Origin: Victivallaceae bacterium
Lineage (GTDB): Bacteria > Verrucomicrobiota > Lentisphaeria > Victivallales > Victivallaceae
Reading direction: 5' to 3'
Assembly (NCBI GenBank): GCA_034926605.1
Contig: JAYFQV010000010.1
Location: 1-32,000 of the forward strand
DNA length: 32,000 bases
Shown here: piece after piece, positions 14,405 to 19,457 of the stretch
How the letters are laid out: each line of letters opens with the position of its first letter
How positions within the stretch are numbered: position 1 is the first letter of the stretch
Translations under genes and position numbers: made by a program
The notes under the pieces: generated by a model
Database searches by the model: none
The model's input: the letters and a program-made list of their open reading frames with translations, nothing else
What the model was told of the DNA's origin: nothing

Positions 14405-15442
14405 TCAATCCCACTTGGTTTTGTTGGCGATCTTCACCAGTATGAGCATGACCGGCACTTCCACCAGCACGCCGACGATGGTCGCCAGCGCCACCGGCGA
14501 CGCGGCGCCGAACACCGCTATCGCCACCGCCACCGCCAGTTCGAAAAAGTTGGACGCTCCGATCATGCCGGCCGGCGCCGCCACGTTGTGCGGCAGCTTC
14601 AGCCATTTGCAGGGCAGATAGGATATGAAGAAGATCAGAAACGTGTTGATGACCAGCGGAACCGCGATCAGCGCTATGTGCAGCGGATTGGCGATTATCA
14701 CATACCCCTGAAACGAGAAGATTATGACCAGCGTCAGCAGCAGCCCGGCAATGGTGACATGGCTGAATTTTCCGATGAATTTCGATTCGAAATACTCGAG
14801 CCCCCGGCGTTTTATCACCGTATGACGCGTGATGACGCCGCCAGCCAGCGGTATGACCACAAACAGCACCACGGAAAGCGCAAGCGTGCCCCACGGTACC
14901 GAAACGTCGCTCAACCCCAGCAGGAATTTGACGATCGGAATGAATGCCACGAGGATGATCAGGTCGTTGGTCGCCACCTGAACCACGGTATAGGCCGGAT
15001 TGCCGCGGGTGAGATGGCTCCATACGAACACCATCGCGGTGCACGGCGCGGCGCCCAGCAGAACGGCTCCGGCCAGATAGTCGCGGGCCAGATCGGGGGC
15101 GATCAGATGGCGGAAGACCACATAGAAGAAGAACGCGGCGAGGCCGTACATGGTGAACGGTTTGATCAGCCAGTTGGCCACCCAGGTGACAAACAGCCCT
15201 TTCGGGTTTTTACCGACGTTGCGGATGCTTTCGAAATCGACCTTCATCATCATCGGATAGATCATCAGCCAGATCAGTATCGCGATCGGGATGGAGACTT
15301 GCGCGTATTCGAAGCGCTCGAGGAAAGCCGGGATTTCCGGCAGAAACCTGCCGATGAGCACCCCGGCCGCCATGCAGAGGATTACCCATACGGTCAGGTA
15401 TTTTTCAAAAAAGCCGATGCCTGCGGTTGTCGGTTGTTTCAT
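14405..15442 (-). CDS. acr3: ACR3-family arsenite efflux transporter
   Basis: GFFEKYLTVWVILCMAAGVLIG...VSIPIAILIWLMIYPMMMKV...LLGAAPCTAMVFVW (conserved Acr3 Cys motif). 345 aa. Its ATG overlaps the arsC stop (ATGA). Confidence 0.95.
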   Translation of the reverse strand: MKQPTTAGIGFFEKYLTVWVILCMAAGVLIGRFLPEIPAFLERFEYAQVSIPIAILIWLMIYPMMMKVDFESIRNVGKNPKGLFVTWVANWLIKPFTMYGLAAFFFYVVFRHLIAPDLARDYLAGAVLLGAAPCTAMVFVWSHLTRGNPAYTVVQVATNDLIILVAFIPIVKFLLGLSDVSVPWGTLALSVVLFVVIPLAGGVITRHTVIKRRGLEYFESKFIGKFSHVTIAGLLLTLVIIFSFQGYVIIANPLHIALIAVPLVINTFLIFFISYLPCKWLKLPHNVAAPAGMIGASNFFELAVAVAIAVFGAASPVALATIVGVLVEVPVMLILVKIANKTKWD

Positions 15443-15861
15443 TTCAGATTCTCCGGAAGTTTTTCAACGAACGCTTTGATCTCGTCGCGGACCTTGCGGT
15501 AGCAGTCGAGTTTTTCCTTTTCACTGCCGCAGGCGGCGGCCAGCCGGGGAGGGTCGTCGAACCCGGCATGAACCACTTTCGTCTTTCCCGGAAAAATCGG
15601 ACAGCTTTCCTGCGCGTTGCCGCATACGGTCACCACATAATCGAACTTCACGCCGCCAAGCTCGCTGACCAGCTTCGAATGCCGGCCGGAAATGTCGACT
15701 CCGCACTCCGCCATAACCTGTACCGCGTACGGGTTGAGGCCGTGCTTCTCGATTCCCGCCGAGTACGGTTCGATCACATCGCTTTTGAGCGCGCGTGTCC
15801 AGCCTTCCGCCATTTGGCTGCGGCAGCTGTTGCCGGTGCATAAAAACAGGATTTTCAACAT
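15439..15861 (-). CDS. arsC: Arsenate reductase, LMW-PTPase / thioredoxin-coupled type
   Basis: MLKILFLCTGNSCRSQMAEG P-loop plus VVTVCGNAQESCP (the Cys82/Cys89-equivalent pair). ATG at 15861 has AAGGA upstream. The track start at 15933 overlaps the preceding gene. Confidence 0.93.
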   Translation of the reverse strand: MLKILFLCTGNSCRSQMAEGWTRALKSDVIEPYSAGIEKHGLNPYAVQVMAECGVDISGRHSKLVSELGGVKFDYVVTVCGNAQESCPIFPGKTKVVHAGFDDPPRLAAACGSEKEKLDCYRKVRDEIKAFVEKLPENLK

Positions 15862-15865
15862 GGCA

Positions 15866-16741
15866 TCATCCTTTTGTCGGGTTTTTGCGGACGCTGAAAG
15901 CCGAAAGCGACAGTCTGAATACCGCTTTTTCATCGTTATCTGCCATCGTCCGGCGGAATATATCCGACCAGGCGGCCTTGAGTTGTTCCCTGCCGTCGGC
16001 GGAGAGCAGGTAAGTGTAGTAGAAAAACGGCATCAGCAACGCCGCCAGCGCTTCCGGCGTTTCCTCGAACACCACCTCGAAATCGACGAAACGCATTTTG
16101 TCGACGAACCGGCCGCTGCGGGCGAACAGGTCTCTTATTCCCTGTTCGCTGCCGAAATCCGGACAGCCGATGGCAACCAGCTTCTCCGGCGCGACGTCGT
16201 TCGCCACCGCCGCCGCCACCGCTTTGCGGACGGCGGAAAACACGGCGTTGCCGCCGTTCAGCCCCGGCACCACCGCCGCCAGAATGCCGGACGGGCGCAG
16301 TATTCTGGCGATTTCCGACAACGACGGTTCGACCGGGCGGAACAGCATCAGCGCCATATGGCACAGCACCGCGTCGGCCGACGCGTCGGGCAGGGACAGC
16401 GCGGCCGCCGACTCTTCGAGGAACCGCACGTTGCCGTGGTCTTTGCAGCGGATTTCAGCCAGGGCCAGCTCTGCATGGTTCAGGTCGATCCCGACAGCCT
16501 GCCCGGACATGCCGACCCTTTGCGATATGAGCCGAGTCAGCGCTCCGCTGCCGCAGGCCAGATCGACCGCCGTCATGCCGGGTCGCAGGTCGGCCTCATC
16601 CGCCAAAAGTTCATAGCTGGAGCGGCCGTCGGCGATCCTGCCGTGTATCAATACGTTCTCGGTGATGCCCGGCGCGGCGTCGTGTACCGACATCAGAAAT
16701 TGCGAAGCGCCGTCATGCGAGTCATGGGAAGCCTGATTCAT
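15866..16741 (-). CDS. Class I SAM-dependent methyltransferase (Methyltransf_11/25-like), not obviously canonical ArsM
   Basis: Motif I VDLACGSGALT and post-I GIDLN, with motif III-like ILRPSGILAAVV. 291 aa. It lies 37 nt downstream of hgcB and 4 nt upstream of arsC. Confidence 0.85.
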   Translation of the reverse strand: MNQASHDSHDGASQFLMSVHDAAPGITENVLIHGRIADGRSSYELLADEADLRPGMTAVDLACGSGALTRLISQRVGMSGQAVGIDLNHAELALAEIRCKDHGNVRFLEESAAALSLPDASADAVLCHMALMLFRPVEPSLSEIARILRPSGILAAVVPGLNGGNAVFSAVRKAVAAAVANDVAPEKLVAIGCPDFGSEQGIRDLFARSGRFVDKMRFVDFEVVFEETPEALAALLMPFFYYTYLLSADGREQLKAAWSDIFRRTMADNDEKAVFRLSLSAFSVRKNPTKG

Positions 16742-16778
16742 TTTTTTATATAAGCCTTTCTGGTTTGTATTATGATCT

Positions 16779-17048
16779 TTATTTGCCGCAACCGCATTTG
16801 CCGCACTGGCCGGAACCGCTCAAGATGGCGGTGGCGCAACCAACCCCGGTTCGTACGGCTATCGCTTCGGCCGGGCAGTTTTTAGCGCATGCGCCGCATT
16901 CTATGCACGCATCTTTTTCCTTGATGACGACTTTCCGGTTTTGCATCGCCAGCACTCCGCGCGGGCATACGTTGAGACAGAATCCACAGCCGGAACACCT
17001 GTCGCCGTCGATCTTCAAGGTAGCCGTGTCTTTGATGTATAAAAACAT
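16779..17048 (-). CDS. hgcB: HgcB, 2x[4Fe-4S] ferredoxin partner of HgcA
   Basis: 89 aa with CSGCGFCLNVCP and CIECGACAKNCP clusters, a conserved GVGCA Cys, and the Cys-rich C-terminal tail QCGKCGCGK. Starts 4 nt after the hgcA stop. The RBS GAAGGGA lies inside the hgcA 3' end. Confidence 0.85.
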   Translation of the reverse strand: MFLYIKDTATLKIDGDRCSGCGFCLNVCPRGVLAMQNRKVVIKEKDACIECGACAKNCPAEAIAVRTGVGCATAILSGSGQCGKCGCGK

Positions 17049-18978: not shown

Positions 18979-18980
18979 GG

Positions 18981-19358
18981 TTATTTTCCTCCACAATGGC
19001 AGCTCATGGTTTTTTCGGCATTCACCCGCTGCCGGATTTCCGCCAGTCGGGCCGAATCCGCGGTTATCGTCGGATCGTTTTTGATCAGCCGCAGCAGCCA
19101 TGAAACGATTTCGGACTGGGCCGAGCCGTCCGTCCCGTCCGTCAGCCGGTAATAAGTCCATTTTCCCGCGCGGCGGGTCTCAACCAGCCCGGCCTGCTTG
19201 AGAATCGACATGTGCTTGGATACCGTGGACGGAGCCAGCCGCAGCATTTCAATGATCCGGCAGACACACAGTTCACCGTTTTGCAGCATGGCCAATGCCC
19301 GCAGACGGTTTTCATCCGACATCGCTTTGGTGATGTTTAATATCTTTTTCACAATCAT
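18981..19358 (-). CDS. arsR: ArsR/SmtB-family metalloregulator (operon 1)
   Basis: Winged-helix pattern DENRLRALAMLQNGELCVCRIIEMLRLAPSTVSKHMSILKQAGLV with the R773-type ELCVC site. Extra C-terminal Cys pair (MSCHCGGK). The start may be the GTG at 19352, which gives better spacing from AGGAG than the ATG at 19358. Confidence 0.9.
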   Translation of the reverse strand: MIVKKILNITKAMSDENRLRALAMLQNGELCVCRIIEMLRLAPSTVSKHMSILKQAGLVETRRAGKWTYYRLTDGTDGSAQSEIVSWLLRLIKNDPTITADSARLAEIRQRVNAEKTMSCHCGGK

Positions 19359-19398
19359 CTCCTACAATTCGCCATATGACGAAATGTATATCCCGAAA

Positions 19399-19424
19399 AA
19401 TATATTTCAAATTCCGATTTGAAA
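19399..19424 (-). promoter_or_regulatory. Candidate ArsR operator (8-4-8 perfect palindrome) abutting a TATATT -10 box
   Basis: On the plus strand, TTTCAAAT (19405-19412), tccg, ATTTGAAA (19417-19424). The arms are exact reverse complements. On the minus strand, TATATT (reverse complement of 19399-19404) lies immediately downstream. AAATTCCG is also directly repeated (19409-19416 and 19423-19430). Confidence 0.5.
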
Positions 19425-19457
19425 ATTCCGGTGAAATAATTATCAATGCCAGCCGGA

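Follow-up and report, generated by a model that had tools for sequence, protein, structure and literature searches.

What purpose the corrinoid protein HgcA and its ferredoxin partner HgcB serve is a long-standing question that limits the prediction of methylmercury (MeHg) production, and a link to arsenic has been proposed and partly tested by others. Why should genes of the mercury-methylation family stand in the middle of an operon for arsenic detoxification? Here, we analysed such a case in a stretch of 32,000 nucleotides (nt) from a Victivallaceae bacterium (GCA_034926605.1, contig JAYFQV010000010.1, positions 1-32,000 of the forward strand; this whole stretch is called the window in the following). 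Seven genes lie on its minus strand at 14405-19358, in the order arsR, a gene for a phosphoenolpyruvate (PEP)-mutase-like enzyme (PEPM in gene orders), hgcA, hgcB, a gene for a class I S-adenosylmethionine (SAM) methyltransferase (MT), arsC and acr3 (Table 1). The recomputed spacings are 2, 3, 4, 37, 4 and -4 nt, the last being the overlap of acr3 with arsC. A first-pass annotation, made from the letters alone, had listed the seven genes with these coordinates and spacings; all of its open reading frames (ORFs) were present and the gaps came out identical. Gene identities were derived from Pfam and NCBIfam profile scores in comparison to curated cut-offs, and these scores together with sequence motifs bear out both its gene identifications and the embedding of hgcAB in a complete arsR-arsC-acr3 operon. 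The arsenic island turned out to be larger than described: it comprises 11 genes (14405-22267), with arsR2-arsP-arsE/F-arsG (19458-22267) located directly upstream on the same strand.

Gene content and conserved sequence elements of the locus are direct observations. Building on them, we propose with a probability of roughly 0.65 that the seven genes constitute an ArsR-repressed, arsenite-derepressed ars operon, in which HgcAB is co-expressed with ArsC and Acr3 and hgcAB is a long-resident accessory module. Arsenite-controlled co-expression of hgcAB, as already suggested by the first-pass annotation, is well supported by inference from the tight packing of the genes, from a conserved repeat ahead of arsR and from a linkage that is maintained through several gene layouts.

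The assignment of the two central genes can be made on several grounds. In HgcA, the cap-helix motif NVWCAAGK covers residues 111-118 (17788-17811) with Cys114 as its cysteine, and its columns are invariant among 24 aligned homologues. Hydropathy analysis yielded five hydrophobic segments of 19 residues in the C-terminal part (residues 215-355), in agreement with the five transmembrane helices expected from the initial reading. The protein passed the HgcA model NF040863, scored 213 bits and thus below the cut-off of 285 with the model of the paralogous HgcAB-like fusion proteins, and matches, at 100% identity, a protein that NCBI lists as HgcA from a Victivallaceae metagenome-assembled genome. 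A check whether it falls outside the HgcA clade gave no indication of that kind. The hgcB gene starts 4 nt past the end of hgcA; its product passed model NF040864 and contains both CxxCxxCxxxCP clusters (C18/21/24/28 and C48/51/54/58), a further C71 and the previously noted cysteine tail (C82/85/87). By curated cut-offs, HgcA and HgcB of the window hence are members of the mercury-methylation family, with Hg(II) methylation itself as a predicted activity.

How stable is the association with arsenic genes? Within the HgcA clade of the window (58-100% identity), every sampled member resides in an ars operon, and seven layouts were found (L numbers denote individual loci). The layout arsR-PEPM-hgcAB-MT-arsC-acr3 is common to the window, L003 (from a sequencing run) and L008 (Victivallaceae ZNE14_Bin28); these two, the closest relatives, have the same eleven-gene layout as the window at an HgcA identity of 76-77%. 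At 67% HgcA identity and with different flanks, L005 is arranged as arsR-PEPM-arsC-hgcA-hgcB-MT-acr3, with arsC shifted into the space between the PEP-mutase-like gene and hgcA, and still the gaps are tight or the junctions overlap. The remaining layouts are arsR-arsP-arsEF-arsG-arsC-hgcAB-MT-acr3 (L176), arsR-arsP-arsC-hgcAB-acr3 (L173), arsC-acr3-hgcAB (L174), arsA-arsD-x-hgcAB-[ArsM+CMD]...acr3 (L175) and a truncated hgcAB-MT. The gene order had been named as a check on the initial reading, and the same gene set indeed recurs in hgcA-positive relatives at 67-77% HgcA identity. Since this recurrence includes the rearranged L005, the arrangement is more than a chance juxtaposition. A related operon, L091, has the order arsR~MT-arsC-acr3-arsEF-arsG and carries neither hgcAB nor the PEP-mutase-like gene; its ArsR, MT, ArsC and Acr3 are 75%, 72%, 81% and 86% identical to those of the window.

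Beyond this clade, a metagenome scan with an HgcA alignment provided a sample of 79 loci whose HgcA is 39-52% identical to that of the window. In 15 of the 79, an ars structural gene lies on the same strand within 1.5 kb of hgcAB; all 15 belong to the 64 loci whose flanks reach 1.5 kb or more. The density of ars genes amounts to 1.58 per 10 kb in the first kb next to hgcAB compared to about 0-0.2 beyond 3 kb. Sandwich layouts are among them (arsR-hgcAB-arsC-acr3 in L104; arsC-hgcAB-acr3 in L124, L143 and L152), as are arsM-hgcAB (L119) and arsEF-arsG-hgcAB (L156). Neither the PEP-mutase-like gene nor the MT gene occurred in any of the 79. We placed 89 HgcA sequences in a neighbour-joining tree and compared the parsimony of ars linkage with 500 shuffles: 13 changes were required, against a shuffle mean of 22.9 and a minimum of 18. 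Every tip of the window clade is ars-linked, as are the sister tips L100 and L104; the remaining linked tips are scattered. Judged from this tree, the ars linkage of hgcAB is partly inherited and partly recurrent.

The control region fits an arsenic-responsive operon. Translation of arsR more likely starts at the GTG at 19352 (123 aa) than at the ATG at 19358, because GGAG (19362-19359) abuts the ATG, because an independent gene call on an identical contig also has 123 aa and because the starts of relatives align with the GTG. ArsR contains four cysteines, two in the ELCVC motif of its DNA-binding region (C31, C33) and two in a C-terminal C120-H-C122; the third cysteine found in the R773 motif is missing. 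In R773-type ArsR proteins, ELCVC classically serves as the motif for As(III)/Sb(III). Both E[LM]CVC and the C-terminal cysteine pair are conserved in the ArsRs of related operons, with and without hgcAB. A perfect palindrome noted earlier in front of arsR does exist; as an operator, however, we rejected it, since only its right arm with the -35-like sequence is conserved in relatives and the neighbouring imperfect inverted repeat is conserved instead. In alignments, the -35 region of the predicted promoter is conserved, and the inverted repeat is nearly invariant between the window, L003, L008, L005, L091 and L092; it is present also in L173 and in the more distant L104, and its core pattern was recovered in L001, L003, L008, L091 and L092. 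Overlapping the -10 box, the repeat stops just short of the GGAG ribosome-binding site. The window contains a single copy, where 0.01 matches would be expected by chance, and in the hgcAB-free operons L091 and L092 the repeat forms a perfect 7-2-7 palindrome. Position and conservation make it the probable ArsR operator. As the ArsR features and the repeat are common to operons with and without hgcAB, this appears to be an ordinary ars regulator/operator pair rather than one specialised for hgcAB.

Taken together, these elements strongly suggest the following course of events. In the absence of arsenic, an ArsR dimer would occupy the repeat (core TTCGTCA-TA-TGGCGAA) and block transcription, which we propose because the repeat overlaps the -10 box of the sole promoter-like site before arsR. 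As(III), either entering directly or formed from As(V) by ArsC, would bind to the ArsR cysteines and release the repressor. A single mRNA would then cover arsR, the PEP-mutase-like gene, hgcA, hgcB, MT, arsC and acr3; this transcript is a prediction from the common strand, gaps of -4 to 37 nt, junctions conserved in relatives and the lack of any terminator-like match between the genes. Gaps of 2-4 nt and the 4-nt overlap suggest translational coupling. ArsC would reduce arsenate, Acr3 would export arsenite, and HgcA and HgcB would be produced within the arsenic response. ArsC has the CX5R loop C8-TGNS-C13-R14 (CTGNSCRS) and the downstream C80 and C87, but remains below the equivalog cut-off of TIGR02691, and we therefore name it ArsC-type from its residues and genomic context.

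Table 1 Coordinates of the arsenic island and its control elements in the window
Feature	Positions	Strand	Description and basis
arsR2	21923-22267	-	ArsR/SmtB regulator, first gene of the upstream organoarsenical operon; ORF and tblastn
ArsP-type permease	20907-21875	-	PF03773 ArsP_1, 202.6 bits
arsE/F fusion	20138-20890	-	ArsE-like thioredoxin domain and ArsF-like domain
arsG	19458-20141	-	Efflux permease, DsbD_2 fold; NF040495, 263.8 bits (cut-off 200)
Perfect palindrome	19405-19424		TTTCAAAT-N4-ATTTGAAA; only the right arm conserved, holding the -35-like TTGAAA (19410-19405)
Predicted sigma-70-like promoter	19383-19410	-	-35 TTGAAA, 16-nt spacer, -10 TACATT (19388-19383); consensus scan
Imperfect inverted repeat	19366-19385	-	ATTTCGTCA-TA-TGGCGAATT; conserved, candidate ArsR operator
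arsR	18981-19358	-	HTH_5 PF01022, 55.6 bits; NF033788, 89.6 bits (cut-off 55)
PEP-mutase-like gene	18145-18978	-	277 aa; PF13714 PEP_mutase, 192.5 bits
hgcA	17053-18141	-	Corrinoid protein; NF040863, 396.6 bits (cut-off 275)
hgcB	16779-17048	-	Ferredoxin; NF040864, 104.7 bits (cut-off 99)
MT	15866-16741	-	Class I SAM methyltransferase, 291 aa
arsC	15439-15861	-	Thioredoxin-coupled type, low-molecular-weight phosphatase fold; TIGR02691, 154 bits (cut-off 174.3)
acr3	14405-15442	-	Arsenite efflux permease; TIGR00832, 385.3 bits (cut-off 282.8)

Two enzymes share the operon with HgcAB. The PEP-mutase-like enzyme is modelled by AlphaFold2 as a TIM barrel (pLDDT, the model's confidence score, 93.2) with TM-scores, a measure of fold similarity, of 0.82-0.87 to structures of isocitrate lyase (ICL) and PEP mutase; the closest structures (2ze3, 4mg4 and 2qiw) are all uncharacterised. 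The acidic metal-site residues D80, E82, E106 and D107 are conserved together with R147, and an invariant C40 (in AVQCSGYS) and a near-invariant C264 are present. The best NCBIfam equivalog scores of the enzyme, 58-104 bits, stay far under the respective cut-offs (320-420). Where PEP mutase and phosphonopyruvate hydrolase have their catalytic loop, and ICL and methylisocitrate lyase (MICL) their K[KR]CGH, the sequence is EDRIHHIPEVRVSD, and the position of the active-site histidine of the first two enzymes reads FVT and is not conserved. Scores below the equivalog cut-offs and the absence of the family catalytic motifs led us to reject a true PEP mutase, phosphonopyruvate hydrolase, MICL or ICL. 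By profile and residue comparison, the enzyme is assigned to an uncharacterised subfamily of the ICL/PEP mutase superfamily, with a length of about 280 aa and many homologues at 50-55% identity.

A sample of 79 genome loci of this subfamily (Verrucomicrobiota, Planctomycetota, Lentisphaerota, Bacillota, Methanobacterium and others) contains an ars structural gene within 3 kb in 25 cases, directly adjacent and on the same strand in 12. An ArsM-like gene with the full cysteine triad lies within 6 kb in 13 of the 79, six of them adjacent; an earlier figure of 31 of 80 loci was corrected, as it stemmed from a single-linkage cluster of assorted SAM methyltransferases. Frequent neighbours of the PEP-mutase-like gene are genes for ArsM or for another SAM methyltransferase. 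It stands beside hgcAB in only two of the 79 (L022, L048) and in the close relative L008. L048 (8017-10837; Bacillota metagenome-assembled genome) has the order MarR-hgcA-hgcB-PEPM-like on a single strand; ars genes are absent within 10 kb, which makes it the sole case seen of this neighbourhood outside an ars context. L022 (10001-15178; Kiritimatiellae metagenome-assembled genome) comprises the PEPM-like gene, acr3, a gene for an FGE-sulfatase-domain protein placed between acr3 and hgcA, then hgcA, hgcB and an AhpC/redoxin-like gene. Literature searches for arsM or ars operons with PEP mutase, isocitrate lyase, methylisocitrate lyase or phosphonomutase returned no arsM paper, and no mention of either this subfamily or the MT family was found in the searchable arsenic literature. 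The bisenarsan pathway of Streptomyces was rejected as a homologue of a PEP-mutase-like step, given that its mutase BsnN is of the phosphoglycerate-mutase type and does not have the PEPM fold. From its genomic contexts, the PEP-mutase-like gene may be an undescribed ars gene.

The MT protein is not an ArsM. It scored 49.4 bits against the arsenite-methyltransferase model NF008823 (cut-off 263), where only the Rossmann core matched; the ArsM cysteine triad (GCG, NCV and a C-terminal Cys) is missing, and no ArsM structure was among the top 50 fold matches to the MT model. In fold, this model (pLDDT 93) is similar to methyltransferases of small molecules, for example the thiol S-methyltransferases TmtA and GtmA. 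The only invariant cysteines of the family are C63 (in DLACGSG) and C127, and invariance was also noted for H20, T27-E28, S42-Y43, H128 next to C127, and F240-Y241. The family is rare, with about 35 full-length homologues of at least 39% identity in a database of 5.8 billion proteins. Nine of its ten distinct genomic contexts are ars operons; hgcAB is directly upstream in five of the ten and missing in four, two of which (L088, L177) have an ArsM+CMD gene beside MT. Wherever hgcAB and MT co-occur, MT directly follows hgcB.

Some of the related operons deserve description in their own right. L091 (311-1564) and L092 (451-1704) encode a 417-aa in-frame ArsR-MT fusion, 75% (ArsR) and 72% (MT) identical to the window, as first gene of an arsC-acr3-arsEF-arsG operon, on contigs from at least two samples. 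The fusion recalls SahR-type regulators, so that MT might be a sensor domain instead of an enzyme. L088 (44-10067) and L177 (2747-10791) are single-strand ars operons of 10-14 genes with arsR, arsP, arsE, a DGC-domain protein, thioredoxin, arsG, arsC, arsD, an ArsM-CMD/AhpD-like fusion, MT and acr3; L177 has the PEP-mutase-like gene in addition.

According to the first-pass annotation, PEPM, hgcA, hgcB and MT formed a core unit, a claim that did not survive the comparison: the PEP-mutase-like gene (in many phyla) and MT (L088, L091, L177 and L178) occur in ars operons without hgcAB, and hgcAB for its part is found in ars operons that lack both (L173, L174, L175). As PEP-mutase-like gene, hgcAB, MT and ArsM+CMD were found in nearly every pairwise combination, they rather look like independent ars accessories than like one pathway. 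Going by these combinations, the PEP-mutase-like enzyme and MT are separate ars accessory modules and not obligate partners of HgcAB.

But, what could HgcAB contribute to an arsenic response? Tentatively, we suggest a corrinoid-dependent methyl transfer to trivalent arsenic species, with the products passed to ArsP, ArsE/F and ArsG and with Hg(II) methylation as a side reaction. The more specific idea that HgcAB of this clade is an oxygen-independent, corrinoid-dependent arsenic methyltransferase, and thus the counterpart of ArsM in the operon slot beside MT, we regard as unlikely. Compatible with arsenic methylation are the equivalent positions of HgcAB and ArsM+CMD beside MT (L088, L177) and the ArsP, ArsE/F and ArsG genes adjoining the hgcAB operon. 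Also compatible are the direct succession of hgcB and MT wherever the two co-occur, that of hgcAB and ArsM+CMD in L175, and the published higher As(V) sensitivity of an hgcAB deletion strain of Pseudodesulfovibrio mercurii ND132 in comparison to the wild type. With both side by side, L175 at the same time weakens a simple replacement of ArsM by HgcAB. No report of arsenic methylation by HgcAB turned up in our literature search. Several points weigh against arsenic as the substrate or against the proposed co-expression. The As(III) tolerance of the same deletion strain was unchanged, and neither mono- nor dimethyl-arsenic was detected in ND132 cultures. By established chemistry, HgcA presumably gives a methyl carbanion or radical to the electrophilic Hg(II); As(III) methylation by ArsM instead proceeds with a methyl cation equivalent. 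Of the distant HgcA loci sampled, no more than about one fifth show ars linkage, therefore arsenic cannot be the universal context of hgcAB, and the clustering of linkage on the tree means that part of the apparent conservation is shared ancestry. Promoter, operator and single transcript are predictions, and the 99-nt gap after arsG contains no predicted terminator, hence read-through from the upstream operon could add a layer of control.

Possible, though doubtful in our view, is a single entry of hgcAB into an ars operon in an ancestor of this clade of Planctomycetes-Verrucomicrobia-Chlamydiae (PVC) type, after which the pair was inherited and co-transcribed with the operon in a role unrelated to arsenic, be it a one-carbon or metal function or the use of MeHg as an antimicrobial, for which a hypothesis has already been published. 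The monophyly of the window clade and the clustered linkage agree with such an origin, as do the roughly 80% of distant HgcA loci without an ars neighbour, the presence or absence of hgcAB as a block between arsR and MT (window versus L091) and the undetected methyl-arsenic in ND132. Against a passenger speak the seven layouts that keep hgcAB in the operon with tight or overlapping junctions despite extensive shuffling of its partners, the ars linkage at about a dozen other places of the HgcA tree in unrelated layouts (for example L124, L143, L152, L119 and L156), and the greater As(V) sensitivity of the ND132 deletion strain. We consider it quite improbable that the PEP-mutase-like enzyme, HgcA, HgcB and MT act successively on one substrate, for instance by making or breaking a carbon-arsenic bond prior to corrinoid- and SAM-dependent methylation. 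All four genes stand side by side in the window, L003 and L008 and almost so in L005, the PEP-mutase-like gene is next to hgcAB in other lineages as well (L022, L048), and true PEP mutase is reported to be active on the arsono-analogues arsenoenolpyruvate and 3-arsonopyruvate (Chawla 1995, as cited in PMC4943196). The existence of an NCBI family named 'corrinoid protein-associated methyltransferase CpaM' suggests no more than that elsewhere a SAM methyltransferase has been connected with a corrinoid protein. Such a dedicated pathway conflicts with the many loci that combine PEPM with ArsM in the absence of hgcAB, with PEPM, MT and ArsM/CMD together without hgcAB (L177), with MT alone (L091, L178), hgcAB and MT without PEPM (L176) and hgcAB alone (L173, L174), and with the lack of the PEP-mutase-like gene and MT from all 79 distant HgcA loci. 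The enzymes themselves also speak against it: the PEP-mutase-like protein has neither PEP mutase- nor ICL/MICL-specific residues, and MT reached 38.5 bits against a cut-off of 180 with the NCBI model 'corrinoid protein-associated methyltransferase CpaM'. Hardly probable, finally, is a different inducing signal, with ArsR sensing Hg(II), Sb(III), Cd(II) or S-adenosylhomocysteine and the operon serving soft-metal or methyl-cycle stress. The four-cysteine regulator of ND132 responds to a build-up of S-adenosylhomocysteine, its authors leave other metals possible, the window ArsR likewise has four cysteines, and the in-frame ArsR-MT fusion of a relative is reminiscent of SahR-type regulators. On the other hand, the same ArsR type and operator lead purely ars operons (L091), the structural genes arsC and acr3 serve arsenic and antimony specifically, and ELCVC is established as the As(III)/Sb(III) motif typical of R773-type ArsR. 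We thus favour the arsenite-controlled operon with hgcAB as its accessory module.

The genes around this operon are in line with a long residence. In the upstream operon, the 250-aa arsE/F protein matches TIGR00412 with residues 2-75 (101 bits, cut-off 62) and the ArsF model NF040494 with residues 151-249 (107.7 bits, cut-off 60), a Cys-rich linker joining the two domains; L088 and L173 have separate ArsE and ArsF genes. According to the gap table, arsG and arsE/F overlap by 4 nt. The start codon of arsR2 is uncertain, the independent gene call on the identical contig (L001) having 93 aa. The island is flanked by genes for an isopropylmalate-synthase-like protein, enolase, heparinase and two glycoside hydrolases, and no mobile-element genes were found in these flanks. 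Guanine-plus-cytosine content, overall and at third codon positions (GC and GC3), of hgcAB and the ars genes agrees with that of host genes. With host-like GC and GC3, housekeeping and glycoside-hydrolase flanks and no mobile-element genes, a recent horizontal insertion found no support. An Rfam scan of the window returned no family at gathering score and thus no riboswitch or other known RNA element, and terminator-like matches were absent from every intergenic gap of the island. On the plus strand, a 98-aa ankyrin-repeat ORF (14089-14385) converges on the end of acr3 and marks the 3' boundary of the operon. Just downstream of acr3, a 1309-aa protein is encoded on the minus strand (9993-13922); it has a central N-acetylmuramoyl-L-alanine amidase domain (residues 562-682) and, on either side, long Gly/Thr/Asn-rich repetitive regions without Pfam match. 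Two further plus-strand ORFs (7478-9320; 264 and 362 aa) are likewise without Pfam match.

If hgcAB is induced by arsenite in this organism, the expression of hgcA in bacteria of the PVC type would come under direct control of arsenic geochemistry. If HgcAB does methylate arsenic, its physiological role, at least in these lineages, would be to detoxify arsenic or to make organic arsenic compounds; the methylation of mercury would be a side reaction, and the PEP-mutase-like enzyme and MT would be two further undescribed ars enzymes. With seven genes, one predicted promoter and a defined candidate operator, the locus lends itself as a test system. As hgcAB, the PEP-mutase-like gene and MT are present in some of its natural variants and absent from others, ready-made controls exist. 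It also contributes two candidates for new ars genes, namely a PEP-mutase-fold subfamily with ars linkage in about a third of 79 bacterial and archaeal genomes, and a rare family of SAM methyltransferases.

How does the locus compare to known systems? The link between hgcAB and ars genes has already been published, including ArsR control in ND132. McDaniel et al. (2020, mSystems, Fig. 6; PMC7438021) depicted acr3, arsC, arsM and arsR flanking hgcAB in metagenome-assembled genomes, and Gionfriddo et al. (bioRxiv 2022, 10.1101/2022.10.17.512643; AEM 2023) found hgcAB co-located with arsC, arsB and arsM in several phyla and showed ArsR-dependent, arsenic-responsive hgcAB transcription in P. mercurii ND132. 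Zhang et al. (2023; PMC10349881) reported ars genes on 4 of 35 hgcAB contigs. Peterson et al. (2025, ES&T, Fig. 4c; PMC11984097) described arsR with acr3/arsC beside hgcA, most commonly in Kiritimatiellia, the source of about two thirds of hgcA genes from one eutrophic lake; lake hgcA transcription was lower where arsR was present. These neighbourhoods represent the same phenomenon as the window, extend to the PVC superphylum through Kiritimatiellia and were reproduced in our 15 of 79 loci. Unlike the present analysis, they were described without clade-wide persistence through rearrangement and without a conserved operator, and a PEP-mutase-family gene is not mentioned in them, as judged by a text search of two of the papers for 'phosphoenolpyruvate', nor is the rare non-ArsM MT. 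We consider as new the seven-gene layout, the clade-wide linkage through rearrangement, the conserved operator candidate and the two ars-linked enzyme families.

The closest studied system, arsR2-hgcA-hgcB of ND132, resembles the window in an ArsR gene directly upstream of hgcAB, which is co-transcribed in ND132, arsenic-responsive and encodes a four-cysteine regulator. It differs in that no other ars genes are present at the hgcAB locus and arsC and acr3 lie elsewhere, whereas in the window hgcAB is inserted between arsR and arsC-acr3 and packed together with the PEP-mutase-like gene and MT. With canonical arsR-arsC-acr3 operons, the window has in common the ELCVC regulator, the residues of thioredoxin-type ArsC, an Acr3 above cut-off and the candidate operator overlapping the promoter, but four extra genes stand between arsR and arsC. 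PEP mutase and phosphonopyruvate hydrolase share the TIM-barrel fold and the acidic site with the 277-aa enzyme and differ in catalytic loop and histidine. In ArsM operons (L088, L177, L013, L077), ArsM or ArsM+CMD is found beside MT or the PEP-mutase-like gene, where the window has hgcAB; unlike ArsM, HgcA is not a SAM enzyme but a corrinoid protein that is anchored in the membrane and paired with a ferredoxin.

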